64,000 nt of DNA, taken from the NCBI GenBank assembly GCA_037139975.1, contig JBAXFJ010000002.1, positions 90,099 to 154,098 of the forward strand, written 5' to 3'. The translations under genes were made by a program, and so were the position numbers. The first letter of the stretch is position 1, and each line of letters starts with the position of its first letter. The notes under the pieces were generated by a model. That model was given only the letters and a program-made list of their open reading frames with translations. It had not been told where the DNA came from and did no database searches. This document shows positions 20,757-64,000 of this stretch, piece by piece. The DNA comes from a bacterium. Its GTDB lineage: Bacteria > Patescibacteriota > Minisyncoccia > Phycocordibacterales > SBAW01.

Positions 20757-21327
20757 TCACCTGCGCCGGGCGCACAATTTTATCACCAATACTATACCCA
20801 CTGCGCTCGAGACTTTCAATACTGTCTCCCGAACCTTTTTGTGCCAATGCTTCGTGTTTGTAATGATCGAACGCTTCGCCCACTTTTCCAAACTGCTCAA
20901 CGCCCATACGCCTCAGAGAATCAATGAGCTGTTTGTGCACCAATTCAAGCTCTTTGCTTCCTGGTGCGCCTGCCTGCGCAGGCAGGTGTTTAAGCGCCAT
21001 CTCGAACACGTCGAGCGCAGGAAGCAGATTTTCTACGAACTCAGCTTTGCTTCTATCCTCGCGGTCGGCGTTGATGCCCAACTCTTGACGCTTATAGTTG
21101 GCAAACTCAGCGCGTGCCCGCTGCCATCCATCAAGATATTCTTGTTTTTCTTCAACCGTTTTTTGTAGCTTTTCTCGTAGCTTTTTTATTGTCCCTGGCC
21201 CCTGCTCACTTTCCTCTTCATCTACAAACTCACTGTCTTGACCCTCGTCTTCTGCTTTCTCTCCTTCTTCTTTTTGGTTGCCTCTTTTATTGTTTTGTTC
21301 TGCAAACTCTTCTTCCTCCACTTTCAT
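20749..21327 (-). CDS. grpE: nucleotide exchange factor GrpE
   Basis: Acidic N-terminus, coiled-coil 'DGWQRARAEFANYKRQ' and C-terminal beta domain. Confidence 0.9.
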   Translation of the reverse strand: MKVEEEEFAEQNNKRGNQKEEGEKAEDEGQDSEFVDEEESEQGPGTIKKLREKLQKTVEEKQEYLDGWQRARAEFANYKRQELGINADREDRSKAEFVENLLPALDVFEMALKHLPAQAGAPGSKELELVHKQLIDSLRRMGVEQFGKVGEAFDHYKHEALAQKGSGDSIESLERSGYSIGDKIVRPAQVII

Positions 21328-41375: not shown

Positions 41376-41391
41376 ATTTTATTTTTCCTAC

Positions 41392-41442
41392 GTCCTAAGG
41401 TTAAACCTTAGACCCCAACCTCCTAAGGTTTAACCTTAGGAC
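41392..41442. repeat. two tandem palindromic units (GTCCTAAGGTTAAACCTTAGAC / TCCTAAGGTTTAACCTTAGGA) in the atpD-atpC spacer
   Basis: Each unit is an inverted repeat with about 9-bp arms. The two units are mutually complementary. Lies directly upstream of the atpC SD (AGGAAAAA). Confidence 0.7.
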
Positions 41443-41448
41443 ATGGGA

Positions 41449-46440: not shown

Positions 46441-47247
46441 TTACTCTACCACAGCGTGGCTCCCACTGCCATGCGCTTCGTTGTGCGCAACACTGTGCGG
46501 CATCGCGATGGCAAGTTTAATGAAAAACAGCGTCAGCATCGCAAACACCCCCGCCTGAACCACGCCAACAAACGTCTCGAACGCCATCAACGGCACCGGC
46601 AGCACATAGGGCATGAAATATGCGACCACAGCGAGCAAGACCTCGCCGGCAAAAATATTGCCAAAAAGACGGAACGAAAACGAGATGAATCGTGACATTT
46701 CAGAGACAAATTCGATAATACCTACGATGAAATTGAGCGGCGAAGAAAAGTTAAAGAACTTTGAGCCATAGCGCCAAAAGCCAACCGCAATAATACCGCT
46801 CACCTCGATGGACAACACCGAAATAATTGCAAGCGCAAGCGTGATGTTGAGGTCGGTGTTGACTGGCCGAAAGAGCGGCACTCCGCCAGCTGGCGGACTC
46901 CCCGCTGGATGAAAAACGACGCTGCCAAAAAACGGCAAGAAATCAAACAGGTTTGATGCGCAAATAAACAGAAAGATGGTCGCAATGAGTGGGAAAAAAC
47001 GCTCGGCCAAGGCACGCGAGCCCAAAATATTTTGCATATAGTCAATAACAAAATCGAACAGCATTTCAAAAAAGTTTTGCACTTTGCCGGGGATGAGCGT
47101 TGGGTTTTTACCTACCACAACAGCAATAAGCACCAAAAAACCCATAACCAACCACTGAGTCACGAGCGTGTTGGTAATGGGCACACCCCACAACGTACCC
47201 AACCGCTCTGCAGCGAGCGTTATATGAAGCCCCGCCTTCTCATTCAT
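46441..47247 (-). CDS. atpB: Fo ATP synthase subunit a
   Basis: Polytopic protein with 'LSFRLFGNIFAGE' a-subunit Arg motif. Start at the internal Met (MNEKAGLH); a -10-like TATAGT lies just upstream. Confidence 0.88.
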   Translation of the reverse strand: MNEKAGLHITLAAERLGTLWGVPITNTLVTQWLVMGFLVLIAVVVGKNPTLIPGKVQNFFEMLFDFVIDYMQNILGSRALAERFFPLIATIFLFICASNLFDFLPFFGSVVFHPAGSPPAGGVPLFRPVNTDLNITLALAIISVLSIEVSGIIAVGFWRYGSKFFNFSSPLNFIVGIIEFVSEMSRFISFSFRLFGNIFAGEVLLAVVAYFMPYVLPVPLMAFETFVGVVQAGVFAMLTLFFIKLAIAMPHSVAHNEAHGSGSHAVVE

Positions 47248-47336
47248 AGATGCGCCCACTATACCACAAAAACGAAAAAATAAGAAAAAGAAAAGACCTT
47301 CTGTGTAAAAGAAGGTCAGAGGGTGCGAAAGATGTA

Positions 47337-47750
47337 TCAGGCTTCCGAAAGGAGACCGCGACGCTCTTCCTTTAGAACAAGACTGAGCGTGCCTCCTTTT
47401 GGCTGAAAGGCCACCCGAAGCGCTTGAAGCCCCGCGCATGGGTTGCACGCACCACACATAAAGACATCGATCGCGGCAAAATTTCGCTCAGGCCAGGTGT
47501 GGATCGAGATATGACTCTCGGCCAAAACAAGCACACCACTGACCCCGCCGTTGAGTGAGAAGTGGTGAAAGTGCCCATGCAAGACGGTTGCCTCAGATGC
47601 GTGAGCCATCTCCCGAAGCGCGCGGTCAATGTATTCTGGATCGCATAAATTGGTCGCTCCCCATACGTCGATCAGCAGGTGCGTGCCCGCGAACACCACC
47701 CCACCCCTTTTGACAAAATAGTCTTTGGGCTCGCCACTTGAACGGTCCAT
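47337..47750 (-). CDS. speH: S-adenosylmethionine decarboxylase proenzyme (small SpeH type)
   Basis: 'GTHLLIDVWG...VLAESHISIHTWPE' including the ES self-cleavage (pyruvoyl) site. SD GGGGGA. Confidence 0.85.
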   Translation of the reverse strand: MDRSSGEPKDYFVKRGGVVFAGTHLLIDVWGATNLCDPEYIDRALREMAHASEATVLHGHFHHFSLNGGVSGVLVLAESHISIHTWPERNFAAIDVFMCGACNPCAGLQALRVAFQPKGGTLSLVLKEERRGLLSEA

Positions 47751-50313: not shown

Positions 50314-51618
50314 TTATAACCTATCCCGAAGTTTCTTGCGGTGAAAGCCGATGGCAAAGCGGTGCGCCTCGGCGTTGGCAAGTAAAATTTCTTTTTCTCT
50401 GATTTTGATTATATTCTTGTCGCCTACCTGCGCAGGCAGGCCCTGCAAGGCCCGTGGACGATGTTTTTCATCTTTGGTGACGCCTACAAGAGGGATCTGC
50501 ACGCCAAACTCTTTTAAGATTGTGTGTGCAGCGTTCAGCTGTGCGGTAGAGCCATCAATCACGATCAATTTTGGAAGCGGCCACTCACTGTGTCCGAGCC
50601 GACGAGACAAAATTTCTTTCAGCGCGCCGGGGTCGTCCCCTGCTTTGGTGGCGCGCAGAATAAACTTGCGATACTCAGCGGGGGCGGCCGCACCGTCTTC
50701 CACCACCGTCATCACACCCACTGCTGCGCTCCCACCCAGGTGCGCGGCATCGTACGCCTCTATTCGAAAAGAGGAAATTTCAAAAGGTCTGCGATATTCA
50801 TCTTTAATAAGAGAGACGTCTTGGATGTGCTGGAGCGCGAACATCTGCCCACGCAGGCGCGCCGCTTCTTCAAACGCTTCTTTCTTTGCGGCAATTTTCA
50901 TATCCCGCTCAAGACTCTTCAGCAGCGTGCTTTTTTTGCCTTGGAAGAGCATTACGATGCGCCGGATTATCCTCTCATACTCTGTTTTACTGATTTCGCC
51001 CGAGCAGACGCCGGGACACAGTCCAATGTGCCGGTTGAAACACGGCTTACACCCTACAAAGGTCGCACCTTTGTATAACAAAGGTGCGACCTTTGTATAT
51101 TTACATGGCACACAAGTGTCGCGATAGGGAAAAATCTTGCGGATTATTTTGAGCGCTTCTTTCAGCTGCGCCCCGTGTGGGAAGGGTCCAAAGGTGTGCA
51201 GGCGCGTCTCGGGAGGAAACTCTGCTTCTAAATTTTTACCCCGCACCAGCAAGACTCTCGGGAATCCGCCAGCTGGCGGATCTTCTTTGGTAATAACAAC
51301 ATGATTGAAACTCTTGTCGTCTTTCAGGTCGGTGTTGTGTGGCGGTTTGTGGGTACGGATGAGGCTTGCCTCGAGCAACAGCGCCTCAAGGACCGAGTCG
51401 GTTTGTCGCCAATCTATCGCTTTGGCCTTTTCAACCATCGAGACAATCAGCTGTCCACGTGTTTTGGGCAAATCGCTGGCAAAATAGCTGCGCACGCGGC
51501 TGCGCAGCGAGGTCGCTTTGCCGATATACAAAACCTTCTTTCGCGCATCAAGAAAAAAGTACACCCCCGGCGCATCTGGCAACTTTGCTGCTTTTTTCTT
51601 AAACTCTTCGAGAGTCAT
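50314..51618 (-). CDS. uvrC: excinuclease ABC subunit C (short, 434 aa)
   Basis: GIY-YIG 'GVYFFLDARKKVLYIGKATSLRSRVRSYF', Cys cluster, RNase H-like endonuclease region. Confidence 0.85.
   Translation of the reverse strand: MTLEEFKKKAAKLPDAPGVYFFLDARKKVLYIGKATSLRSRVRSYFASDLPKTRGQLIVSMVEKAKAIDWRQTDSVLEALLLEASLIRTHKPPHNTDLKDDKSFNHVVITKEDPPAGGFPRVLLVRGKNLEAEFPPETRLHTFGPFPHGAQLKEALKIIRKIFPYRDTCVPCKYTKVAPLLYKGATFVGCKPCFNRHIGLCPGVCSGEISKTEYERIIRRIVMLFQGKKSTLLKSLERDMKIAAKKEAFEEAARLRGQMFALQHIQDVSLIKDEYRRPFEISSFRIEAYDAAHLGGSAAVGVMTVVEDGAAAPAEYRKFILRATKAGDDPGALKEILSRRLGHSEWPLPKLIVIDGSTAQLNAAHTILKEFGVQIPLVGVTKDEKHRPRALQGLPAQVGDKNIIKIREKEILLANAEAHRFAIGFHRKKLRDRL
51055..51099. repeat. tandem pair of 22-bp palindromic units (TACAAAGGTCGCACCTTTGTATA / ACAAAGGTGCGACCTTTGTATA) in frame within uvrC
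   Basis: Each unit is an inverted repeat and the second is the reverse complement of the first. Encodes '...KVAPLLYKGATFV...' inside the UvrC cysteine-rich segment. Confidence 0.7.
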
Positions 51619-51624
51619 AGATTT

Positions 51625-54285
51625 TTATTTTCCCTTTAACACTCTCGCCAGATACTTGCCCGTGTGCGAATGTTTGTTGTTGGACACCTCCTCAGGCGTG
51701 CCTTTTGCCACGAGTGTCCCCCCGCCGATGCCGCCTTCTGGTCCAAAGTCGAGCACATAGTCGGCGCTTTTGATGATGTCCATGTTATGTTCAATGAGTA
51801 CCACAGAATTTCCCGCCACCACGAGCCGGTTGAGAATATCGATGAGTTTTTGCACGTCGGCATAGTGCAACCCGACCGTCGGTTCATCGAGCAGATATAT
51901 GGTTTTTTGCAGGTGTGGCCTGTACAATTCAGAGCCAATCTTGACGCGCTGCGCCTCGCCACCGGAGAGCGTGGTGGCGCTTTGACCCAACTGCAAATAC
52001 CCCAAGCCCACTTCGCCAAGCGTGTGCAGGCGGTCGTGGATGGCGGGAATGTCGCCAAAAAAATCGAGCGCTTCTTCGACAGTCATTGAAAGCACTTCTG
52101 AGATATTTTTCTTTTTATACTTCACCTCGAGGGTCTCTTTCATAAACCGTTTGCCGTCGCAGATGTCGCAGGTCACGTAGACTGTGGGTAAAAAGTGCAT
52201 CTCGACGGCGATGGTGCCGTTGCCTTCGCACGCCTCACAGCGCCCACCGCCTTTTTCCTGCTTCACATTGAATGAAAACCTGCTCGATTTCCAACCCCGT
52301 GCCCGCGCCTCGGTTGTCGAGGCAAAGAGCTCGCGGATGAAAATAAACGTACCAGTATAGGTCGCGGGGTTCGAGCGTGGCGTGCGGCCGATGGGACTCT
52401 GGTCAATGAGGATTGCCCGCGAGAGGTTTTCCATCCCCTCAACGGTTGTTGCGTTAAACACTTTGTTTGTTCGGTAGCGCTTGTCGAAACGCGCTTTGAG
52501 GTTTTCATAGAGGATTTCATAGAGGAATGTCGACTTGCCCGAACCCGAGACACCTGTCACCGCAACCAACTTGCCCAGCGGCACGTCCACCGAGAGATTG
52601 TGAATGTTGAACGCGCGGCCGCCGCGGATCTTGATTGTCCCCTTGTCTTTGTCGCGTCTGTTTTCTGGCACAGGCACTTCCATCTCGCCGCGCAGGTAGG
52701 CGAGCGTCAGCGAACCACTGTCATTCTTTTTAGCGGTGAGCAACTTGTCGAGGTCACCCGCCACCACCACTTCCCCGCCGTGGACGCCAGCGCCGGGGCC
52801 GATGTCGACGATGTAGTCGCTTGAATAAATCGTGTCTTCGTCGTGTTCAACCACAATGATGGTGTTGCCCAGGTCGCGCAGGTTGACCAGCGTCTTGATG
52901 AGTCGCTCGTTGTCGCGACTGTGCAGACCAATGGTTGGTTCATCGAGCACATAGAGCGCACCCACAAGTCCCGAACCCAGCTGTGACGCCAGGCGGATGC
53001 GTTGTGCCTCACCACCCGAGAGCGTGTTGGCACGCCGGTCGAGCGTCAGGTAGTCCAAACCAACATCGAGCATGAACTTGAGCCGTGAAGAGATTTCTTT
53101 AATCACTGTTTTTGAAATCTCTTGATCTTTTTTGGAAAGCTCCAACTCTTTAAAGAATTCATATGCATCTTTGACCGACAGATTGGTCAAATCTACTATA
53201 TTCTTTCTGTTGGACAACAAAGGTGACTCCTTAGCTTTGGAAGGTGTCTCCTTGGTTGTCCTCAAAAAAACATGCAGGGCTTCGGAGCGCAGGCGCGCGC
53301 CGTGACAGACGGGGCACTCTTCGTCGCTAAAGAAGTGTTTGGTTCCGAGGCCATTGCAGGCGGGACATGCACCGTAGGGAGAGTTAAACGAAAAGAGGCG
53401 CGGCTCTACTTCAGGGAACGAGAATCCGTCGTAGGCGCACATAAACTTTGCCGACACGAGTCGCTCGCCCACTGAGTCTTCGACTTTAACCAAGCCACCC
53501 GACTCTTCAAGCGCGCGCTCAACCGCTTCAGAAAGGCGTTCGAGCGCCGCAGGCTTGGTGCGCGCGAAGTCAGCTATCAAAATCTCATCAACAAGCGCAT
53601 CGATGTCGTGCTTTTTGTTTTTTGAGAGGATAATCTGCTCGCGCAAGCTCATCACCACGCCATCAACCTTGACCTTTTCATAGCCCTTGCCGAGCAAGTC
53701 GTAGAGCAGTTGGTAGTATTCGCCCTTGCGGCCTACCACCACCGGCGCAAAGATCTTGACGGTGGCAGTGCTAATTGTGATGTCGAACACCTGTATATCA
53801 CTTTTTTGCTTGCCCTGCGTAGCCTTGCGCGAAGTAGGGGGCATGTGGCTCTCGACGCCTTCGATGATGCTTTGCACAATTTCTTCGTTGCTGTGCTTTT
53901 TGATCTCGCGACTACACACGGGGCAGTGCGGCTTGCCCACGCGCGCAAACAAAATGCGCAAGTAGTCATAAATTTCAGTAATCGTTGCCACCGTGGAGCG
54001 TGGATTGTTTGAACGCGACTTTTGATCAATAGAAATTGCCGGAGAGAGACCGGTGATTTCTTCAACGTCGGGCTTTTGCATCTGACGCAAGAACTGCCGC
54101 GCGTATGCAGAAAGACTCTCCATATAGCGGCGCTGCCCTTCTGCAAAAATAGTATCAAACGCGAGCGACGACTTCCCGCTCCCCGAGAGACCAGTAAAAA
54201 CCACCATTTTATTTCTGGGAATGGACAGCGAAATATTCTTGAGGTTGTGCGTCTTTGCGCCCTTTATGGTGATTTTGTCTTCCAT
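51625..54285 (-). CDS. uvrA: excinuclease ABC subunit A
   Basis: Two ABC ATPase modules (Walker A 'GLSGSGKSSL' and 'GVSGSGKST'), zinc-finger cysteines, 886 aa. Confidence 0.95.
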   Translation of the reverse strand: MEDKITIKGAKTHNLKNISLSIPRNKMVVFTGLSGSGKSSLAFDTIFAEGQRRYMESLSAYARQFLRQMQKPDVEEITGLSPAISIDQKSRSNNPRSTVATITEIYDYLRILFARVGKPHCPVCSREIKKHSNEEIVQSIIEGVESHMPPTSRKATQGKQKSDIQVFDITISTATVKIFAPVVVGRKGEYYQLLYDLLGKGYEKVKVDGVVMSLREQIILSKNKKHDIDALVDEILIADFARTKPAALERLSEAVERALEESGGLVKVEDSVGERLVSAKFMCAYDGFSFPEVEPRLFSFNSPYGACPACNGLGTKHFFSDEECPVCHGARLRSEALHVFLRTTKETPSKAKESPLLSNRKNIVDLTNLSVKDAYEFFKELELSKKDQEISKTVIKEISSRLKFMLDVGLDYLTLDRRANTLSGGEAQRIRLASQLGSGLVGALYVLDEPTIGLHSRDNERLIKTLVNLRDLGNTIIVVEHDEDTIYSSDYIVDIGPGAGVHGGEVVVAGDLDKLLTAKKNDSGSLTLAYLRGEMEVPVPENRRDKDKGTIKIRGGRAFNIHNLSVDVPLGKLVAVTGVSGSGKSTFLYEILYENLKARFDKRYRTNKVFNATTVEGMENLSRAILIDQSPIGRTPRSNPATYTGTFIFIRELFASTTEARARGWKSSRFSFNVKQEKGGGRCEACEGNGTIAVEMHFLPTVYVTCDICDGKRFMKETLEVKYKKKNISEVLSMTVEEALDFFGDIPAIHDRLHTLGEVGLGYLQLGQSATTLSGGEAQRVKIGSELYRPHLQKTIYLLDEPTVGLHYADVQKLIDILNRLVVAGNSVVLIEHNMDIIKSADYVLDFGPEGGIGGGTLVAKGTPEEVSNNKHSHTGKYLARVLKGK
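53221..53253. repeat. 33-bp imperfect palindromic element AGGTGACTCCTTAGCTTTGGAAGGTGTCTCCTT, in frame within uvrA (copy 1)
   Basis: Near-identical copy at 57531-57563 in tgt. On the coding strand it encodes 'KETPSKAKESP' and carries two AAGGAG motifs. Confidence 0.75.
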
Positions 54286-54394
54286 AGAAAATTTTCAGAT
54301 AACACAACGGCCCCGAGGACCGCTCCTAGGGGTTGCGTATGTGCAGAAAGAGTATAGCACTTTGCTCAAAAACCCGATACAGTGGAACCTTTTT

Positions 54395-56482
54395 TTATTT
54401 CTTATGGTTCTTTTGTTTGATTGGCTTGTTGCCGCCCTCGAGCACTGCTATTTCATCGCGCAAAATTGCCGCGGTTTCAAAGTCGAGTTCTTTGACCGCC
54501 GCTTCCATCTGGCTCCGCTTTTCTTTGATAAACTTTTTTGGGTTTTGGGCATAGAGACTCTTGTCGATATCGAGCAGCACGTTGACCGCCTTGCCATGCT
54601 CGCTGCGCAATGCTTCAGTAATATCTTTAATCGCTTTGATGATAGTTTTGGGTGTGATGCCGTGTTTTGTGTTGTAGGCAATCTGCACTGCGCGGCGCCG
54701 GTTCGTTTCGCCAATCGCTTTTTCAAGCGAATTGGTCATCTGGTCGGCATAGAGAATGACGCGGCCATGCACATTGCGCGCGGCGCGACCAATGGTTTGG
54801 ATGAGCGAGACTTCAGAGCGCAAGAACCCTTCTTTGTCGGCATCGAGAATAGCCACCAGCTCAACTTCGGGCAAGTCGAGCCCTTCGCGCAGCAAATTGA
54901 CCCCCACCAACACATCGTAAACGCCCTTGCGAAACTCGGTGAGCGTTGTTATGCGGTCCATCGTGAGCACGTCGCTGTGGATATAGGCTGCTTTAAACTT
55001 TCGGTCTTTCAAAAACTCTGAAAGATCTTCAGCCATCTTTTTGGTAAGTGTCGTAACGAGGATTCTCCCGCCATGCTTAATCACCTTTTCTGCTTCGTCT
55101 AAAAAGTCTTGCACTTGGCCCCGAGCGTTATTTAAGGGAAGTCCGACTTCACTAGTAACTAGTGAAGTCGGACTTCCCTTTTCACCGGTTACTGGTCGGA
55201 TAATAATTTCAGGATCAATAAGGCCGGTGGGGCGAATGATTTGCTCGACCATCTCGCCCGACTTTTCTTTTTCATAGGGCCCGGGGGTCGCCGAAGTGTA
55301 AACAGTCTGCCCCACCCGCTCCTCAAACTCTTCAAACGTCAGCGGCCTGTTGTCGATAGCCGAAGGGAGGCGAAAGCCGTAGTCGACCAAGTTTTTCTTG
55401 CGCGCTTGGTCGCCCGCATACATGGCCCCGATTTGCGGCACCGTCACATGCGACTCGTCTATCACGGTCAAGAAATCAGGCTTGCCGTCTTTGGTGTGGG
55501 GGAAATATTCAAGAAGAGAGAATGGCGGCTGCCCTGGTTTGCGCCCATCAAAGTGCCTTGAGTAGTTCTCGATGCCCGAGCAGTAGCCAATCTCACGGAT
55601 CATAGCCAAGTCGTGGTTTGTTCTCCTTTTCAATCGCTCTGCCTCAAGCAGCTTGCCTGAGCGTTCAAATACCTTGAGCTGTTCTTTAAGCTCAAATTTA
55701 ATTTCTTCAATCGCTCGGCCGCGCTCTGCCTCGGGGGTCACGTAGTGCTTGGCAGGAAAGAGAAAGAGCGAGCTGGGGCTTTCTTTTTCTGCGCGAGTGA
55801 TGGCGTCTATGATGCGCACTTTTCCTATTTTCTCGCCATCAAATTCAACACGATAGAGCACCCGCTCGCCGGTCGGCATAATCTCGACCGAGTTGCCCAG
55901 CGCGCGAAATTTGCCAGGAGTCAAATCAGCCGGTGTGCGCTCAAAATAAATGTGTATCAATTCGCGAATCAGCTCTGCCCGATTTTTCTTAGTGCCCGGC
56001 GTCAATTCGACATGCACTTTTTTATATTCTTCTGGACTGCCGAGCGCATAGATGCACGAAACAGAGGCAACGATAATCACGTCATCGCGGGTGAGCAGTG
56101 CCTGGGTCGAGGCGTGGCGAAGCCTGTCTATCTCTTCGTTTATCTGCGCCTCTTTTTCAATGTATGTGTCCGAGTGCGGGATGTATGCTTCGGGCTGGTA
56201 GTAGTCGTAGTAGGAGACGAAATAGTGCACCGCGTTGTTTGGAAAAAATTCTTTGTACTCTTGGGCGAGTTGAGCCGCCAGAGTTTTGTTGTGGGCTATC
56301 ACCAACGTGGGCTTTTGTATCTGGTTGATGATGTTTGCCACGGTAAACGTCTTGCCCGATCCGGTAACGCCCAAAAGAGTCTGGTCGCGCTTGCCGGCTT
56401 TGAGCCCCTTCACCAATGCCTCAATAGCCTTGGGCTGGTCCCCAGCTGGTTGGTATTCGGATGCGAGTTTAAATCCTGACAT
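54395..56482 (-). CDS. uvrB: excinuclease ABC subunit B
   Basis: Helicase motifs 'GVTGSGKT' and 'DESH', C-terminal UVR domain, 695 aa. Confidence 0.95.
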   Translation of the reverse strand: MSGFKLASEYQPAGDQPKAIEALVKGLKAGKRDQTLLGVTGSGKTFTVANIINQIQKPTLVIAHNKTLAAQLAQEYKEFFPNNAVHYFVSYYDYYQPEAYIPHSDTYIEKEAQINEEIDRLRHASTQALLTRDDVIIVASVSCIYALGSPEEYKKVHVELTPGTKKNRAELIRELIHIYFERTPADLTPGKFRALGNSVEIMPTGERVLYRVEFDGEKIGKVRIIDAITRAEKESPSSLFLFPAKHYVTPEAERGRAIEEIKFELKEQLKVFERSGKLLEAERLKRRTNHDLAMIREIGYCSGIENYSRHFDGRKPGQPPFSLLEYFPHTKDGKPDFLTVIDESHVTVPQIGAMYAGDQARKKNLVDYGFRLPSAIDNRPLTFEEFEERVGQTVYTSATPGPYEKEKSGEMVEQIIRPTGLIDPEIIIRPVTGEKGSPTSLVTSEVGLPLNNARGQVQDFLDEAEKVIKHGGRILVTTLTKKMAEDLSEFLKDRKFKAAYIHSDVLTMDRITTLTEFRKGVYDVLVGVNLLREGLDLPEVELVAILDADKEGFLRSEVSLIQTIGRAARNVHGRVILYADQMTNSLEKAIGETNRRRAVQIAYNTKHGITPKTIIKAIKDITEALRSEHGKAVNVLLDIDKSLYAQNPKKFIKEKRSQMEAAVKELDFETAAILRDEIAVLEGGNKPIKQKNHKK
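55134..55180. repeat. perfect 47-bp palindrome (23-bp arms, AAGGGAAGTCCGACTTCACTAGT-A-ACTAGTGAAGTCGGACTTCCCTT) inserted in frame in uvrB
   Basis: Relative to the E. coli UvrB segment '...IEVRPVATQVDDLL...', the protein here carries an extra ~22 aa, 'GEKGSPTSLVTSEVGLPLNNAR', encoded by the palindrome and its flanks. Confidence 0.75.
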
Positions 56483-56647
56483 GTAGACACTCTACCACAT
56501 TTGTGTGGTTACTCTATAAAAAGCAAAAGAGGGACGGACTTAATATTATAAGCCGTCCCTCCACCAAATGATATTCCCTCTTCTGAGGACACACTTGGCT
56601 TAGTCTCTTGGTCTGTTAAAGACATTGCTCTGTTTCAAGATAGTATG

Positions 56648-57946
56648 TCAAGAGCGTTTGTATTTCGCTAAAAACTCATCTCGAAACTGCTCAAAATTAC
56701 CTTGGAGAATAGATTCGCGGATTTGGGAGACCAAGTTTGCGAGAAAGAAGATATTGTGCTGGCTGGCGAGCATCGGGGCGAGCATCTCTTTAGTGCGAAA
56801 GAGGTGGTGGATGTAAGCGCGGGTAAATTGGAAACCGGTTTCTCCATTTTGGGCGCAGACAGGGCAGGCGCACTCGGGGTCGAGGGGACCTAGATCGTCT
56901 TTGTATTGTGCGTTCTCTATGTTCAGCTTTCCCGCATGGGTAAAGAGCGTACCCGTGCGGCCGTTGCGCGTGGGGATGACGCAGTCAAAGGTGTCGACTC
57001 CATAGGCCGCGCCCAAAAATAAATCTTCGGGCTCCCCCACCCCGAGCCCGTGCACCGGCATGTCGGGCGGGAGAAATTGGAGCATGTTGAGTGCCGACTG
57101 CAAAGAATTTTCCCCATATTTTTTACTAAACGAGCCACCGAGGCCAAAGCCGTCAAAGCCCATGTTGCCTATTGTTTTTGCACTTTCGGCCCTCAGGTCG
57201 TCGAACTGTCCGCCTTGGGCTATGCCGTAGACAGCTTGTTTGTTATTTGCCTCGATGTTTTGCCGATGCGCGGCGAGTGAGCGTTTTGCCCAACGGTGGG
57301 TGCGTTCCATTGCCTCTTTTTGATATTCGTAGGGGGCGGTGGGCTCGGTGCATTCATCGAACGCAAAGAAGATATCCGCGCCGAGCTTGTGTTGGATCTC
57401 AACCGAGCGCTCGGGAGTAAAGCGATGCAAGGTGCCGTCGAGGTGGCTGGTAAACGACACGCCATCTTCATCAACGATAGCGAGCTTGCCGTGACTCGTG
57501 GCAAGTTCTTCATTATATACTGCTGCTTCAGTCGGTTGAGGTGACTCCTTAGCCCTGGAAGGTGTCTCCTCGAGCGACTGAAATTTTGAAACTTTTTTGC
57601 CAAATCCAACCCCCAGTGAAAACACTTGGAAGCCGCCCGAGTCAGTCATGGTTGGGCCATTCCAGCCCATAAACTTGCCCACGCCACCTGCTTTTTCTAC
57701 CAGATCTTCCCCCGGCGAAAGGTAGAGGTGATAGGTGTTGGCTATGACTGTTTGTAAACCCAAATTTTTAAAATCCAGACTCGAAACGCCTTTGATGGTT
57801 GCCTTGGTCGCCACCCCAACGAACGCAGGCGTTTGAATGTCGCCATGCGGGGTCGACAAAACCCCCGCTCGAGCGAGCGAGGGCTTGTTTTGCTTTTCTA
57901 TTTTAAACGTTACTGGCCGCATCCCGAAAGGCCCCACGTAGGGCAA
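56648..57946 (-). CDS. tgt: queuine tRNA-ribosyltransferase
   Basis: 'DCVIPTRNGRTG' region and 'CACPVC' zinc site, 432 aa. Carries the inserted peptide '...LEETPSRAKESPQPTE...'. Confidence 0.9.
   Translation of the reverse strand: MPYVGPFGMRPVTFKIEKQNKPSLARAGVLSTPHGDIQTPAFVGVATKATIKGVSSLDFKNLGLQTVIANTYHLYLSPGEDLVEKAGGVGKFMGWNGPTMTDSGGFQVFSLGVGFGKKVSKFQSLEETPSRAKESPQPTEAAVYNEELATSHGKLAIVDEDGVSFTSHLDGTLHRFTPERSVEIQHKLGADIFFAFDECTEPTAPYEYQKEAMERTHRWAKRSLAAHRQNIEANNKQAVYGIAQGGQFDDLRAESAKTIGNMGFDGFGLGGSFSKKYGENSLQSALNMLQFLPPDMPVHGLGVGEPEDLFLGAAYGVDTFDCVIPTRNGRTGTLFTHAGKLNIENAQYKDDLGPLDPECACPVCAQNGETGFQFTRAYIHHLFRTKEMLAPMLASQHNIFFLANLVSQIRESILQGNFEQFRDEFLAKYKRS
57531..57563. repeat. 33-bp imperfect palindromic element AGGTGACTCCTTAGCCCTGGAAGGTGTCTCCTC, in frame within tgt (copy 2)
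   Basis: 31/33 identical to the uvrA copy. Encodes 'EETPSRAKESP'. Confidence 0.75.
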
Positions 57947-58486: not shown

Positions 58487-58650
58487 ACCAAAACGATACT
58501 CCAGCCAGCACATTCCAGCAAGCAACCTATCCCCAAGAACTATTGGATACAAGCTAGAAACCTTCTTGCGTGTGACGTGTTATAGAAAGTGTAGTCATAA
58601 ATACTTACACATAGAGTATGAAAAAAATGCGTTAGGCCAGCGCGGCTTCC

Positions 58651-59175
58651 TCACCACAACGAGGCAGCCGCGCTGGCCATTTGCGCATGCTGAGCAACAG
58701 TACCAGCAAGCAGGCCGTGCGTGTTGCTATACACAAACAAAAGTGCAAGCACCGCAACCAACACTCCACCCAGCAGCATATTTTTGGATTGTATCTGGAT
58801 GTGGACAAAAAACGTGATCAATACCGCCAAGAAAAGCATACCCGCAATGGCCTCAAGCAGAGCGTTTACAACCCGCGAGTCGCCCAAAAAACGAGCAATC
58901 TGCCGCACAGTTGTTTGCACAAGCCCTGCAGGGTTTGAGGCATTACTTGCGCCCGCAGTCATGGGGGTAGTGCCCGCAACAACAGCCCCTGCAAAAAATG
59001 CTTGATTTGATTGCTGACTGATCAGGCTGGTCATCAAAAAACCCTCAACACCAAGCATTAGCGCGAGAAAAAACATGAGCCACGAACGATGCAGCACGCG
59101 TGGTCGATAGGCATTTCTGTATGACGGAATAAATAAATGACGAAATGCATACCACAAATCAAAAAAACTATGCAT
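58651..59175 (-). CDS. membrane protein (hypothetical)
   Basis: Multiple hydrophobic helices, Ala-rich loop. Confidence 0.35.
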   Translation of the reverse strand: MHSFFDLWYAFRHLFIPSYRNAYRPRVLHRSWLMFFLALMLGVEGFLMTSLISQQSNQAFFAGAVVAGTTPMTAGASNASNPAGLVQTTVRQIARFLGDSRVVNALLEAIAGMLFLAVLITFFVHIQIQSKNMLLGGVLVAVLALLFVYSNTHGLLAGTVAQHAQMASAAASLW

Positions 59176-61575: not shown

Positions 61576-62754
61576 CAAATATTTTTTATTTTTCAACTTT
61601 TCGGGCAAATAACTTTCTGTATCATATTTTTCATACCCCTTGCCGTAGCCCACATTTCTCATCAACTTGGTTGGCGCATTACGGACTTTCATCGGGATGG
61701 GTAGGTTGCCCAGTTTTTTGACATCTTCGAGCGCTTCAAAATAGGCGTCATGTGAGTTCCGACTCTTTTTACATTCAGCCAAATACGCGACCCCGTGCGC
61801 GAGGTTGATCTGCGCTTCGGGATAGCCTATTGTTTGGCACGCGCGAAAAACCGCGTTGGCGACCACCAGCGCAGTCGGCACCGCGAGGCCAATGTCTTCG
61901 CTGGCAAAAATCACCATTCGCCGCGCAATGAAGAGCGGGTCTTCGCCCGCAGCGACCATACGCGCTAAATAATACAAAGCGGCATCAGGCTGCGAGGCGC
62001 GCATGCTTTTGATGAACGCCGAAATGGTGTTGTAGTGCTCCTCGCCTTTTTTGTCATAGCGCAGATGTTGGGACTGGACCGTTTCTTTGAGCGCTTCAAG
62101 TGTGACCACACCATAGAGCTTGTGCGTATTTTCAAGCACAGTGATGGCTTGTCGCGCGTCGCCCGCAGCCACACGAACGAGCCACTCTTTTGCGTCTTTT
62201 TTAATTTTTGCACCAAGCGCTTTAGCCGCTTGCACAACAATCTGCCCCATCTCATCTTCGCTCAATTCATTCAAGACAAACACCCGCGCACGCGAAAGAA
62301 GCGCGGGGATGACCTCAAAGCTTGGGTTCTCGGTCGTAGCGCCAACCAAAGTGAGTGCTCCGCGTTCAACAAACGGCAATAAAAAATCTTGCTGGGCTTT
62401 GTTAAATCGGTGAATTTCATCGATAAATAACACCTTTGGCTTGTTTGAAAAATCGAGTTTACCTTTTTGAATAACATTTTTAATATCCTCTTTGCCCGAA
62501 TCAACCGCCGAGAGTTCAAAAAATTCTGCTTCAAGCGCGTTCGCATATATCCGCGCGAGCGTTGTCTTGCCGCTCCCCGGCGGACCCCATAACAAAAAAG
62601 AGAAGAGGTGTTTACCCACAATGGCTTCATACAGCGGCCCGCCCGAACGAGCAGGCTCGCCTGGTCGGGCAGGCGCACCCTTTGCAACCAAGTGCGCTTG
62701 ACCAACAAACTCACCTAAACTCTTGGGCCGTATTTTTGATGCGAGGGGTTCCAT
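61570..62754 (-). CDS. rarA: replication-associated recombination protein A (AAA+ ATPase)
   Basis: 'WGPPGSGKTTLARI' Walker A, 'LFIDEIHRFNKAQQD' Walker B/sensor, C-terminal MgsA domain. Extra Pro/Gly-rich segment 'GAPARPGEPARSGGPL' near the N-terminus. Confidence 0.9.
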   Translation of the reverse strand: MEPLASKIRPKSLGEFVGQAHLVAKGAPARPGEPARSGGPLYEAIVGKHLFSFLLWGPPGSGKTTLARIYANALEAEFFELSAVDSGKEDIKNVIQKGKLDFSNKPKVLFIDEIHRFNKAQQDFLLPFVERGALTLVGATTENPSFEVIPALLSRARVFVLNELSEDEMGQIVVQAAKALGAKIKKDAKEWLVRVAAGDARQAITVLENTHKLYGVVTLEALKETVQSQHLRYDKKGEEHYNTISAFIKSMRASQPDAALYYLARMVAAGEDPLFIARRMVIFASEDIGLAVPTALVVANAVFRACQTIGYPEAQINLAHGVAYLAECKKSRNSHDAYFEALEDVKKLGNLPIPMKVRNAPTKLMRNVGYGKGYEKYDTESYLPEKLKNKKYLK

Positions 62755-62796: not shown

Positions 62797-64000
62797 TTAC
62801 TGCACCACTACATTGCGTGTTGCATACCCAATGTTGCCTGCCTGGTCCATGGCGCTATAGAGGATGGTGTGTGAGCCAGGAGCGCTGGTGTCGATGTGGA
62901 CCTGATCGGGCGAGGTGGTTGCCGCGCTGTCCACCGAGACCGAGTAACCCAGGTTTTGGGTGACGTTGTCGGTAACGGAGACACCCAGGTCGACATAGGA
63001 GTCACCCACGGTAAGGTTTGCAGGGTTTGCTCCATTGGGGGTCAAGACGGGAGCCTCGGTGTCGGGGGTGGTGGTGGCAGAAGAACCACCGCTGGAGCCG
63101 CCCGACATGCTTTGACCAACACTCGCCAAGATTGACGCAAGTTGGTCACCGGTGATGCACACAGGTGTGCCATCCATCTTTGCAACACACACCTGCTTGG
63201 TCGTGATCGACTGCGCAAACCCGGCCACCGCAGCAGCCAGCGCGTCCACCTTGTGCGACAGCGTTTGCAACGCAGCAATAATTGGTGAGATCAGCTCCAT
63301 GTAGTTGACCTGGAACGTGCCACCCGGCGTAAGAGTGGTTGCGCTTGTTTTGGTCACCACTGTTGGGAAGACAGTTTGCACTTCTTGGGCAACAAGGCCA
63401 AGTTGTTGATCGGTCGAGCCGATGCCCGAAGTTGGGAGCGTTGGGTCCTTCCAATAGAAAGAAACAGGGTTGAGTTGGTTAATCGCATCAAGCGCGGTTT
63501 GCCCATTGATCGGGGTGATATTTTGTTTAAGCCTCTGATCAGACGCCGTACAACCCACAACACCACTCGCGTTGGTGGTCAGGCCCGTACAACCGTTGTA
63601 GGTGACGGTGTTGAAGGTGATAGGACCCGAATTAGAGACAGAGAAGAGTGTGGTGGTTGCGCTTGCAGTCGAACTTGCGATTGCAAAAAGCGTGGTGTTG
63701 GTGTCGCCGTTATCGGCATGTATCGCAAATTGTGCGAACGGAGTGGTGGTTCCAATACCAAGGTTACCTTGAGGAGAATTGATACCGCGTGCATTGTTTG
63801 CTCCCGTATTGAGATTAGTGCCAAAAATAATGTTTCCGATATTGAGCAGATTGCTGCTTCCGGCTGCGGGAACATCTACATTACCAACTTGATTGTTTCC
63901 GCCTGCACCTATGAGAATATTGCCACTACCCGTAGTAAGCGTCGGACCCGTTCGATATCCCAAAAGCGTGTTGTAGCTGCCGCTCGTCATATTAAGACCG
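62797..64000 (-). CDS. tail-fiber-like surface protein with peptidase S74 (intramolecular chaperone) domain and C-terminal Ig-like domain; N-terminus beyond window end
   Basis: 'DQRLKQNITPI...LNPVSFYWKD...GLVAQEVQTVFP' matches the S74/endosialidase-chaperone auto-processing domain. Repetitive Gly/Asn/Thr-rich N-terminal region. ORF is open to the window edge. Confidence 0.6.
   Translation of the reverse strand, partial: GLNMTSGSYNTLLGYRTGPTLTTGSGNILIGAGGNNQVGNVDVPAAGSSNLLNIGNIIFGTNLNTGANNARGINSPQGNLGIGTTTPFAQFAIHADNGDTNTTLFAIASSTASATTTLFSVSNSGPITFNTVTYNGCTGLTTNASGVVGCTASDQRLKQNITPINGQTALDAINQLNPVSFYWKDPTLPTSGIGSTDQQLGLVAQEVQTVFPTVVTKTSATTLTPGGTFQVNYMELISPIIAALQTLSHKVDALAAAVAGFAQSITTKQVCVAKMDGTPVCITGDQLASILASVGQSMSGGSSGGSSATTTPDTEAPVLTPNGANPANLTVGDSYVDLGVSVTDNVTQNLGYSVSVDSAATTSPDQVHIDTSAPGSHTILYSAMDQAGNIGYATRNVVVQ

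Follow-up and report, generated by a model that had tools for sequence, protein, structure and literature searches.

In yeast mitochondria, protein-coding genes of a reduced genome contain GC-cluster palindromes and 'byp' inserts, which are very short, mobile and able to form hairpins; the 'byp' inserts break the reading frame and the ribosome bypasses them. Bacterial REP/BIME repeats are imperfect hairpins of 20–40 nt with conserved irregularities, which occur in tens of copies per genome and form subfamilies. They lie outside genes, have a conserved GTAG on the 5′ side and bracket the cognate RAYT gene. MITEs such as Correia/CREE, ERIC and BOX are short non-autonomous elements with inverted-repeat ends, which form stable hairpins in transcripts and are occasionally intragenic (PMC10969869); they typically measure 100–500 bp, derive from insertion sequences (IS) and show target-site duplications. 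Rickettsia palindromic elements (RPE-1 to RPE-10), with a unit of about 150 bp, are non-coding palindromes that have entered many unrelated housekeeping genes of a reduced-genome bacterium in frame, and translation turns them into additional peptides at the surface or in loops; they also occur between genes and have no known transposase (PMC10969869).

Here, we analysed a 64-kb stretch of DNA (hereafter the window) in which an earlier note had described a 33-bp palindromic element in both uvrA and tgt and had likened it to RPEs. The likeness holds in that the element is a dispersed repeat sitting in frame in unrelated essential genes, and the hairpin family to which it belongs shares the RPE features listed above apart from unit length, including in-frame insertion in unrelated genes that is compatible with protein function. 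Membership among the RPEs was rejected because size and host differ (30–55 nt in CPR bacteria against about 100–150 bp in Rickettsia only) and because the family uses five reading frames in both orientations, whereas each RPE family has a fixed frame and a single conserved peptide; size, host and frame use are the traits on which this separation was drawn. Two 11-nt boxes, a variable loop, variable outer stems, nesting and arm duplication further set the hairpin family apart from RPEs. With REP/BIME repeats it has in common the size, the imperfect hairpin, the copy number, the subfamilies and the presence of Y1 genes in the same genomes, and with MITEs the non-autonomous character, inverted-repeat ends, transcript hairpins and intragenic copies, although its members stay below 55 nt and have no known parent IS. 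Unlike the yeast 'byp' inserts, the family keeps the reading frame, which is most simply read as translation straight through the insert.

Two hairpins in uvrA and tgt

The uvrA gene (51625–54285, minus strand; 886 aa) encodes a protein 100% identical to a MAG excinuclease ABC subunit UvrA at NCBI (best PDB match, E = 3.6e-299). The tgt gene (56648–57946, minus strand; listed as an ORF of 432 aa) encodes a protein 100% identical to a MAG Tgt with Pfam domain PF01702 (best PDB match, E = 1e-96), the database copy of which begins 8 residues downstream of the listed ORF start. The host is an ultra-small CPR bacterium, and the host proteins share 70–100% identity with proteins from CPR/Parcubacteria MAGs (Adlerbacteria, Paceibacterota).

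A pattern search for the 32-nt core AGGTGACTCCTTAGCYYTGGAAGGTGTCTCCT matched the plus strand of the window at exactly two places, 53221–53252 in uvrA and 57539–57570 in tgt, against none in 100 shuffles, confirming that both genes hold a related palindromic core. The start in uvrA is the one given in the earlier note, while the tgt copy lies 8 nt away from the position reported there (57531–57563). The cores agree at 30 of 32 positions (30 of 33 if the next base is counted, instead of the reported 31 of 33), and both differences fall in the loop (TT vs CC). Read on the plus strand, box 1, AGGTGACTCCT, and box 2, AGGTGTCTCCT, occupy 53221–53231 and 53242–53252 in the uvrA copy and 57539–57549 and 57560–57570 in the tgt copy, both of which are read from the minus strand within their genes. 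These 11-nt arms had been described as an imperfect inverted repeat, which is correct at 9 of 11 positions; they additionally form a direct repeat at 10 of 11 positions and, as a helix, contain two T·T mismatches (A·A on the mRNA strand). A third, loose match at 62976–63007 was rejected because it shows no fold (z = +0.5) and lies inside an Ig-like domain.

The 33-bp element of the earlier note is the middle of a 50–52-nt hairpin, whose outer stems are unlike between the two copies yet complementary within each. The complete uvrA hairpin (50 nt; 53212–53261, minus strand) consists of the outer stem GGACAAC/GTTGTCC, the two boxes, the inner stem CCTT/AAGG and an 8-nt loop, and, when one further base is included, codes for RTTKETPSKAKESPLLS (UvrA residues 342–358). 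The complete tgt hairpin (52 nt; 57529–57580, minus strand) combines the outer stem CAGTCG/CGACTG with the common core and encodes QSLEETPSRAKESPQPTE (Tgt residues 123–140). On the mRNA strand, the minimum free energies are −23.3 kcal/mol (z = −4.8) for uvrA and −20.6 kcal/mol (z = −2.8) for tgt; the plus strand of the tgt hairpin reaches −29.2 kcal/mol (z = −5.45). Orientation and reading frame are identical in both copies, and our translations agree with the peptides KETPSKAKESP (UvrA) and EETPSRAKESP (Tgt) of the earlier note. Where two AAGGAG motifs per copy had been noted, the mRNA strand carries AAGGAG or GAGGAG, plus AAGGAG. An Rfam search of the whole window at the gathering threshold matched a single tRNA and yielded no family for the hairpins.

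Alignment with orthologues identified both copies as in-frame insertions. A 17-residue gap lies exactly opposite the hairpin block of UvrA in the alignment to PDB 9gxk, and this block is missing from all 119 non-identical orthologues in a set of 120, as it is from solved UvrA structures. The Tgt copy lies within a segment that stays unaligned against Zymomonas TGT, at a site that is hypervariable among 120 orthologues and is spanned by a loop of 8–10 residues in the minimal ones. In the structure model it falls inside loop 107–153 (pLDDT < 50), for which disorder is predicted. The peptide is absent from every orthologue compared, in line with the earlier note. Both sites are insertion hot spots, at which other genomes carry different, unrelated hairpin inserts.

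A hairpin family in CPR genomes

To find further copies, a genome collection of 596 Gb was scanned with the pattern AGGTGWCTCCTN{6,14}AGGTGWCTCCT. The scan returned at least 118 loci, where we calculate that about 2–3 matches would be expected by chance. Among the matches listed, at least 103 hairpin-type copies were found at 93 loci in about 35 CPR MAGs, whereas about 25 non-CPR loci are tandem direct repeats; copies with exact boxes number about 24 in JAUSGQ01 and 13 in JBAZRE01. The window copies are neither the only ones nor carriers of an ancestral conserved peptide, the two outcomes that the earlier note had set against its own reading. Viral contigs gave no family match, and the literature searched contained no paper with the box sequences in a relevant context. 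Some depositor taxon labels (e.g. 'Saccharibacteria') look doubtful, the sequences in question showing 74–81% nucleotide identity to Parcubacteria-type loci.

The family signature reads C-R-AGGTGACTCCT-(variable inner stem and loop, 6–14 nt)-AGGTGTCTCCT-Y-G, with the boxes, whose invariance in this sample is imposed by the search pattern, pairing around two T·T mismatches (A·A on the opposite strand). The core measures 28–36 nt and the unit about 30–55 nt; it is flanked by 1–9 bp of further complementary sequence, mostly site-specific, with CG..CG flanks in 47 copies and CA..TG in 25. Double changes were observed at all nine pairs of the outer helix, of whose cells 83.4% are paired, compared with 71.3% after shuffling (observed value reached in 0 of 500 shuffles) and 34–58% in slid controls. 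The central box pair alternates between A-T and T-A (91:13), 66 of 104 copies have outer stems that are unique yet complementary, and outer stem length is equal for in-gene and intergenic copies. Sister families show compensatory changes in the boxes themselves, e.g. AGGTGAGACCT/AGGTCTCACCT and AGGTGAGTCCT/AGGTCTCTCCT, and a subfamily with one and the same core can recur several times within a genome, each time in an unrelated context.

Among the 103 listed copies, 56 lie inside ORFs (about 32 of them in ORFs of 250 aa or more), another 36 fall between genes, and gene edges account for 11. Host genes include those for UvrA, UvrB, DnaE, AtpD, TsaD, RecG, GatB, Dus and a P-type ATPase, among others. 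In-gene copies use five of the six reading frames in both orientations, and every intragenic copy preserves the frame of its host.

Empty sites, decay and template switching

Empty and filled versions of a site could be compared at L082/L105, at L094/L065 and in DnaE (L111 vs L016, L023 and L003). A MITE-type target-site duplication, which the earlier note had proposed to look for, was evident neither at these sites nor at those of the window; the flanks in these four comparisons are only 75–85% identical, which leaves the exact insertion boundaries uncertain. Copies nest, decay (truncated forms occur too) and recur at the same protein loops, and their presence or absence varies between related genomes. 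Some are kept at orthologous positions across species (L080/L100, L003/L027, L077/L108/L118 and a subfamily close to mreB or immediately upstream of it). At the uvrA site, the syntenic relative L121 has an apparent decayed copy (its score was reached by 3 of 2000 shuffles), whereas the window copy is intact. This intactness and the retention across species could reflect constraint or homogenisation instead of pure selfishness.

At least four further in-frame palindromes, which the earlier note had not connected with the element, lie in uvrB, uvrC, tgt, atpB and grpE of the window, again with preserved reading frame, and L121 provides clean empty sites for other palindromes of the window. The one in uvrB (55134–55180) is a perfect palindrome of 47 nt. 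Its left arm (KGSPTSLV) is homologous to KGSSQKPTSVL of L121, and its right arm is an exact inverted copy; judged from this alignment, it demonstrably arose by inverted duplication of local, pre-existing coding sequence. Quasipalindrome template-switch mutations likewise combine one ancestral arm with a new inverted copy and have their arms homogenised and extended (PMC8794818, PMC13100816, PMC5941160), and there is published precedent for arm homogenisation and expansion of hairpins (PMC8794818, PMC13100816). For the outer stems in uvrA and tgt, comparison with relatives at 70–85% amino-acid identity did not tell an ancestral arm from a copied one. Template switching alone would yield locus-specific palindromes and leaves a 32-nt core at more than 100 sites in many genomes unexplained.

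Origin and nature of the family

We consider it likely that both copies belong to a multi-copy CPR/Patescibacteria family of very short, non-coding hairpin repeats, found mainly in Parcubacteria-type MAGs, which is selfish or neutral and resembles both RPEs and REPs while belonging to neither.

A more specific form of this mobile-element reading, in which a RAYT/IS200-type Y1 (HUH) transposase would mobilise a REP-like element by way of its folded single strand, appears unlikely. The REP-like size, the imperfect hairpin with conserved mismatches and the multiple copies would fit, and 6 of the 93 loci with elements contain Y1_Tnp genes (PF01797, E = 4e-8), with at least three in the most element-rich MAG. 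However, these six Y1 genes are each bracketed by their own unrelated hairpin, e.g. GTAGCAAGGGTTACCCTTGCTAC, and none of 80 additional CPR-type Y1 loci (223 kb) contains the twin boxes with one mismatch allowed per box, so that the arrangement of REPs around their cognate RAYT gene was seen in none of the 86 loci examined. The flanks follow CG/CA...TG/CG instead of a conserved GTAG-type 5′ tetranucleotide, and over half of the listed copies (56 of 103) are intragenic, unlike REPs.

Slightly less probable still is a functional cis-element, in which the twin boxes form a binding site or a structured RNA/DNA signal under selection (for instance a regulatory hairpin, an element that governs RNA stability or a site recognised by a CPR-specific protein) and in-gene copies are tolerated or exploited. 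Consistent with such a role, the 11-nt boxes are identical in MAGs of many studies, stem changes are compensatory, and the uvrA copy is intact in the window and apparently decayed in L121. In addition, several genomes have a T..A subfamily (stem GGACA/TGTCC) at or near the 5′ end of an mreB-like gene; it adjoins or overlaps the gene in L032, L034 and L078 and lies about 160 nt upstream of it in L088. Against it, the copies favour neither strand with respect to transcription, either in genes (35:21, near the 3:2 expectation from open frames) or between same-strand genes (8:9, our count). The copies use five reading frames in unrelated housekeeping proteins, differ in presence between related genomes and are in many cases decayed, truncated or nested. 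Intergenic copies occur in divergent, convergent and tandem contexts, so they are not simply terminators, and no Rfam family covers them.

In a purely local event, one gene would have gained the segment and its neighbour, 4.3 kb away, would have received it through gene conversion or illegitimate recombination, or else the two would have converged. Such an event would account for the only two copies in the 64-kb window lying near each other, sharing orientation and frame, and differing at two loop bases. It is nevertheless very improbable, and as a complete explanation it is refuted by the genome-collection scan: about 100 further members occur in other genomes and genes, an identical 32-mer with TTAGCTTTGGAA is present in L031, L043, L056 and L091 (with one change in L011). 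The two window copies also have flanking stems that bear no relation to each other. Even so, the close similarity of these two copies could still be due to local conversion. Even less credible is a selected peptide module, a linker (K/E)ETPS(K/R)AKESP with a function at the protein level. The window copies do share their frame and nearly the same peptide, but the same DNA reads RGDT.., RRHL..RSHL, GDS..GVS or KVTP..VSP in other hosts, and use of five different frames means that there is no conserved peptide module; one third of the copies are intergenic, and disorder is predicted for the Tgt segment. Finally, an assembly or amplification artefact, conceivable in that all sequences are MAGs and chimeric reads can create palindromes, is highly implausible given many studies with several assembly pipelines (k141_, k99_, k127_, NODE_ and scaffold contig names), preserved reading frames in every intragenic copy and in the five other window palindromes, and orthologous copies that recur across independent MAGs.

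The copies described above show that a core common to different genomes is copied to new genomic places and lands in both orientations, in genes and between genes. Within genes, only stop-free, frame-keeping copies survive, in tolerant and often disordered loops, where the element is most simply read as translated into a loop extension; such survival explains why the same UvrA, UvrB, DnaE and Tgt loops are hit repeatedly by different palindromes. The stems probably grow by template switching: intra-strand events (quasipalindrome correction or inverted flank duplication) would extend the hairpin and keep it paired, and would explain the unique outer stems as well as arms that are nested or duplicated in part. 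Copying of the core itself could be due to a hairpin-specific enzyme acting in trans or to ectopic template switching; no mobilising enzyme and no autonomous parent element for the family was found in the element-bearing loci or in the 80 further CPR-type RAYT loci. The inserts in uvrA and tgt belong to a large family of miniature hairpin repeats, absent from the literature searched, whose members lie in frame in protein loops across the CPR group.

Twin-box hairpins in uvrA and tgt

The 32-nt core AGGTGACTCCTTAGCYYTGGAAGGTGTCTCCT, made up of two 11-nt boxes with an inner stem and loop between them, was found exactly twice in the window by pattern search, at 53221-53252 and 57539-57570 on the + strand, and in 0 of 100 shuffled windows. 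Its hosts are uvrA (51625-54285, minus strand; product 100% identical to an NCBI MAG UvrA) and tgt (56648-57946, minus strand; PF01702). Folding showed both copies to be the centres of longer hairpins whose outer-stem sequences differ between the two genes: GGACAAC/GTTGTCC at 53212-53261 in uvrA (−23.3 kcal/mol, z = −4.8) and CAGTCG/CGACTG at 57529-57580 in tgt (−20.6 kcal/mol, z = −2.8). The boxes AGGTGACTCCT and AGGTGTCTCCT are simultaneously a 10/11 direct and a 9/11 inverted repeat, and their helix contains two T.T mismatches, seen as A.A in the mRNA. A resemblance of these arms to Shine-Dalgarno and anti-Shine-Dalgarno sequences (AAGGAG and TCACCTT) is speculation. The earlier note had placed the tgt copy 8 nt too low and put the identity at 31/33 rather than the actual 30/32, with both mismatches in the loop; its common orientation and reading frame (KETPSKAKESP and EETPSRAKESP) were borne out by translation. 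A looser third match from a relaxed search (62976-63007, 4 mismatches) was not counted because it does not fold and lies inside a bacterial Ig-like domain. Rfam gave nothing at either site at gathering thresholds.

That both copies are in-frame insertions, as the earlier note had proposed, holds against orthologues. In UvrA, alignment to the solved structure 9gxk leaves a 17-residue gap exactly opposite RTTKETPSKAKESPLLS; as 17 residues equal 51 nt, the insertion corresponds to the whole hairpin, outer stem included. About one third of the 120 closest UvrA orthologues (77-85% identity) show the minimal state VFLG-DKKNIVD, and among these 120 the insert peptide is found solely in the identical database copy. 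In Tgt, residues 113-157, which contain the element, stand in place of 4 residues in Zymomonas TGT, and minimal CPR orthologues have only 8-10 residues at the site, for example SGEVAVEEGV in L121, the syntenic Adlerbacteria MAG. The Tgt insert is predicted to occupy a poorly ordered loop, since the AlphaFold model (mean pLDDT 85.9) falls below 50 over most of residues 107-153 (107-122, 127-139, 144-153).

Both sites are hypervariable, with unrelated inserts of 10-80 residues in other orthologues. The two Tgt-site inserts whose DNA was inspected (relatives' loci L119 and L120) are themselves long hairpins. At the uvrA site L121 holds GAGAACCCTTCGACAAGCTCAGG, whose alignment to the window element was equalled or beaten by just 3 of 2000 shuffles. 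The site may have been filled before the L121 and window lineages split, yet the window copy is intact, which may reflect re-insertion, conversion from another copy, or constraint. Elsewhere in the window UvrA, ~115 residues are missing relative to 9gxk chain residues 305-419 (insertion domain region), the query passing directly from residue 315 to 316. Near residue 160 it carries an 11-residue insert, ATQGKQKSDIQ, in a loop that has twin-box elements in relatives L013, L080 and L100.

A dispersed hairpin family in CPR genomes

We scanned a collection of one genome per species (596 Gb) with the pattern AGGTGWCTCCTN{6,14}AGGTGWCTCCT, which yielded at least 118 loci against ~2-3 expected by chance according to our calculation. 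Among the matches listed, ~25 non-CPR loci are tandem direct repeats unrelated to the hairpin family, and at least 103 hairpin-type copies lie in at least 93 loci of ~35 CPR MAGs, so the window pair is not an isolated two-copy case. Depositors label these MAGs as Kaiser-, Lloyd-, Harrison- and Nomurabacteria, Paceibacterota, Minisyncoccia, 'Patescibacteria group', unclassified 'bacterium' and some Saccharibacteria; the richest among the matches listed are JAUSGQ01 (~24 copies) and JBAZRE01 (13). Four relatives' loci (L031, L043, L056, L091) share the exact window-type core, with inner TTAGCTTTGGAA, in entirely different flanks. An assembly artefact is excluded, as contig names point to several pipelines and many studies. 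In the full-text literature, searches on the box sequences and on palindromic or in-frame elements of CPR bacteria brought up nothing beyond general CPR papers and unrelated primer matches. In four MAGs labelled 'Candidatus Saccharibacteria' (CAYHST01, CAZXAN01, CAYIHD01, CAZSPA01), dnaE/uvrA DNA is 74-81% identical to that of Parcubacteria-type MAGs in the set, so these labels are probably mistaken and the family may not extend beyond Parcubacteria-like lineages.

The family consensus is C-R-AGGTGACTCCT-inner stem/loop of 6-14 nt-AGGTGTCTCCT-Y-G, in which the invariance of the boxes among matches is imposed by the search pattern. At the central box pair, 91 copies have A..T and 13 have T..A, and an unpaired state is essentially never seen. 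Inner-sequence subfamilies (TTGGCATTTGCAA, TCACC-N-GGGGA, CGCCGCG and TTAGCTTTGGAA) are common to several genomes and repeated within a genome. Outside the boxes, complementarity at positions 1-9 is 97, 78, 79, 63, 65, 57, 47, 41 and 35%, with background levels beyond. Across 104 copies, double changes occur at 9/9 outer pairs, and 83.4% of outer-helix cells are paired compared with 71.3% after shuffling (reached in 0 of 500 shuffles) and 34-58% in slid controls. A degenerate (A)ATTCCCG/CGGGAAT(T) outer stem is common to 33/104 copies and GGACA/TGTCC to 5, which probably reflects longer master copies and softens any statement that every outer stem is unique. The remaining 66/104, both window copies included, have unrelated, site-specific, yet complementary outer stems. 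The idea that outer stems are pre-existing terminator hairpins was rejected, because their length within genes matches that between genes (mean 5.7 and 6.5 bp, respectively).

Allowing box mismatches uncovered sister families with compensatory box changes: AGGTGAGACCT/AGGTCTCACCT form a perfect pair, AGGTGAGTCCT/AGGTCTCTCCT have a central pair flipped with the T.T mismatches retained, and AGGTGTCACCT/AGGTGACACCT have both mismatches resolved. Only AGG...CCT is constant across them. In one sister family, AGGTGAGACCT-TGGGAGTGACTCTTTA-AGGTCTCACCT, the arms form a perfect inverted repeat and the 16-nt loop is conserved. Sister copies (in L018, L029, L064, L066, L089, L094, L116 and other loci) often lie ~100 nt or less from twin-box copies.

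Of the at least 103 copies listed, 56 are inside ORFs, ~32 of them in reading frames of 250 aa or more; a further 36 are intergenic and 11 lie at gene edges. Hosts include UvrA (three other genomes, second site), DnaE (three genomes, same site), UvrB, AtpD, TsaD, RecG, GatB, Dus, a P-type ATPase and an AMP-binding enzyme. A selected peptide module is rejected by the frame distribution, since five of the six frames are translated (EETP..ESP, RGDT.., RRHL..RSHL, GDS..GVS, KVTP..VSP). In-gene copies are oriented 35:21 relative to their hosts, the ratio predicted from the stop-codon content of the boxes (3 open frames versus 2), and intergenic copies in tandem contexts 8:9. Intergenic contexts are divergent (7), convergent (5) and tandem (~16), and the copies lack a T-tract. 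Orientation and context thus give no pointer to a strand-specific RNA role, and a terminator role was rejected. A T..A subfamily, GGACA-AGGTGTCTCCTCA..GC..GGAGGTGACTCCT-TGTCC, sits at or near the 5' end of an mreB-like gene, adjoining or overlapping it in L032, L034 and L078 and ~160 nt upstream in L088. The subfamily (L032, L034, L078, L088; also L018, L087, L037, L066) is found elsewhere in the same genomes too; a regulatory role for the mreB-linked copies is possible.

Gain, decay and nesting of palindromes

Empty and filled sites were recovered in pairs: L082 is longer than L105 by 44 nt at a stop codon, and L094 exceeds L065 by 59 nt. The DnaE site is empty in L111 and filled in L016, L023 and L003, the L003 copy being decayed and broken by another small palindrome. 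Other palindrome families are nested within twin-box loops in L066 and L078, and arms are tandemly duplicated in L012, L042 and L114. Copies are also retained at orthologous positions across species (L080/L100, L003/L027, L077/L108/L118 and the subfamily near or just upstream of mreB).

The window carries further in-frame palindromic insertions in uvrC, tgt and uvrB relative to L121, which shares the order tgt-uvrB-uvrA-uvrC (70, 84, 85 and 68% amino acid identity, respectively). In uvrB (54395-56482, minus strand), 55134-55180 is a perfect 47-nt palindrome with 23-nt arms around a single spacer nucleotide; its RNA fold has z = −10.9, and it is translated in frame as KGSPTSLVTSEVGLPL. Its left arm (KGSPTSLV) is homologous to the non-palindromic KGSSQKPTSVL of L121 and its right arm is an exact inverted copy, a signature of fold-back/template-switch synthesis; the comparison indicates that coding sequence was duplicated de novo in inverted form. 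In L012 this UvrB loop is occupied by twin-box elements, and in L080 and L100 by other inserts. A perfect 43-nt palindrome in uvrC (gene 50314-51618; 51055-51097, z = −8.3), within a 48-nt in-frame insertion relative to L121, consists of two copies of a smaller one, ACAAAGGT-CGC-ACCTTTGT; a similar 21-mer is present in L088.

A second dispersed family, TCCGCCAGCTGGCGGA, is found in uvrC (51265-51280), as a clean 15-nt in-frame insertion CCGCCAGCTGGCGGA (PPAGG) relative to L121, and at 46882-46897 in the ATP synthase subunit a gene (atpB, 46441-47457). Another 14 sites with this 16-mer lie in 12 CPR loci, and here too the flanks are complementary and site-specific; in L078 a copy is nested within a twin-box element, and in L117 a copy adjoins one. 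A third family, CCTGCCTGCGCAGGCAGG, encodes LPAQxG in frame in grpE (20969-20986) and uvrC (50423-50440), with a related sequence at 62659-62679 in an mgsA-like gene. Compared with L121, the copy in uvrC is an insertion of 18 nt (CCTGCCTGCGCAGG type), both of its junctions carrying CAGG; a related palindrome is nested in the L066 twin-box loop. In tgt, the 12-nt palindrome GAAACCGGTTTC (56831-56842) lies within a 21-nt in-frame insertion (QNGETGF) that adjoins the Cys cluster and is absent from L121 and Zymomonas TGT. Long intergenic hairpins at 1044-1091 (between convergent genes), 41386-41448 and 58635-58678, with stems of 18-26 bp, resemble terminators, and their sequences have no relation to the twin-box family.

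Mechanism, relation to known repeats and significance

The twin-box hairpins make up a dispersed family that varies in copy number. Only frame-preserving insertions that fall in permissive loops are tolerated; copies decay, nest and recur, and local inverted duplication is active in the window genome. Inverted repeats are known to arise, become homogenised and expand through fold-back/template-switch synthesis (PMC8794818, PMC13100816, PMC5941160). Intra-strand template switching at a stalled hairpin is the proposed source of the site-specific outer stems and of their maintained pairing, and the core could possibly spread by ectopic template switching with another copy as donor, making a dedicated enzyme unnecessary. 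Our confidence in this mechanism is moderate to low. Mobilisation by a RAYT/IS200-type Y1 enzyme is unsupported. Six element loci contain Y1_Tnp (PF01797) genes, each with its own, different REP-like hairpin, on both sides in L042, L086, L107 and L116 (for example GTAGCAAGGGTTACCCTTGCTAC or TGAGATGACATCTCA) and only downstream in L006 and L099; twin boxes were absent from all 80 further CPR-type Y1 loci from metagenomes (L122-L201, 223 kb). Given the many Y1 genes in CPR genomes and these hairpins beside them in the six loci, REP/RAYT systems appear to be common in CPR and unrelated to the twin-box element. Phage carriage is likewise unsupported, with no match among 2.9 million viral contigs.

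The earlier note had likened the element to Rickettsia palindromic elements (RPEs). The likeness stands for behaviour, namely in-frame insertion in essential genes, and fails for membership: RPEs are ~150-bp elements of Rickettsia with a fixed-frame peptide (PMC10969869), whereas the twin-box element is a CPR repeat of 30-55 nt translated in five frames. REPs are similar in size and hairpin irregularity but are extragenic, carry a GTAG motif and are linked to a cognate RAYT, whereas over half of the twin-box copies listed are intragenic, and GTAG and RAYT linkage are absent from the loci covered. MITEs have target-site duplications and IS parentage; for the twin-box element, no duplications were evident (the flanks compared being 75-85% identical) and there is no known parent IS.

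We class the twin boxes as a CPR-specific hairpin repeat family and conclude with high confidence that the element is real, dispersed and largely selfish or neutral. A broader reading would unite AGG-N5-CCT twin boxes, TCCGCCAGCTGGCGGA, CCTGCCTGCGCAGGCAGG and others in a CPR superfamily of ultra-short hairpin elements. These would spread in a hairpin-directed manner by an undescribed mechanism, with a preference for sites at or within existing hairpins, would lengthen through template switching and would be a principal source of loop insertions and length variation in CPR housekeeping proteins. Taken as a whole this reading is tentative, and we lean somewhat against it; if true, the elements would still be generating new protein segments in genomes that are among the smallest known.

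Repeats are expected to be purged from reduced genomes, yet here translated hairpin inserts persist in essential repair, replication, translation and ATP-synthase genes. The family offers a concrete source for many lineage-specific CPR loop insertions, calls for caution in the annotation, alignment and structure prediction of CPR proteins, and provides markers for strain typing and insertion dating. Its conserved core with site-specific complementary flanks is a natural system for template-switch mutagenesis in uncultivated bacteria. If mobile, the family would rank with the shortest dispersed repeats that are known to invade coding sequence, and the 'protein-coding palindrome' phenomenon of Rickettsia would reach a second bacterial radiation, a very large one.
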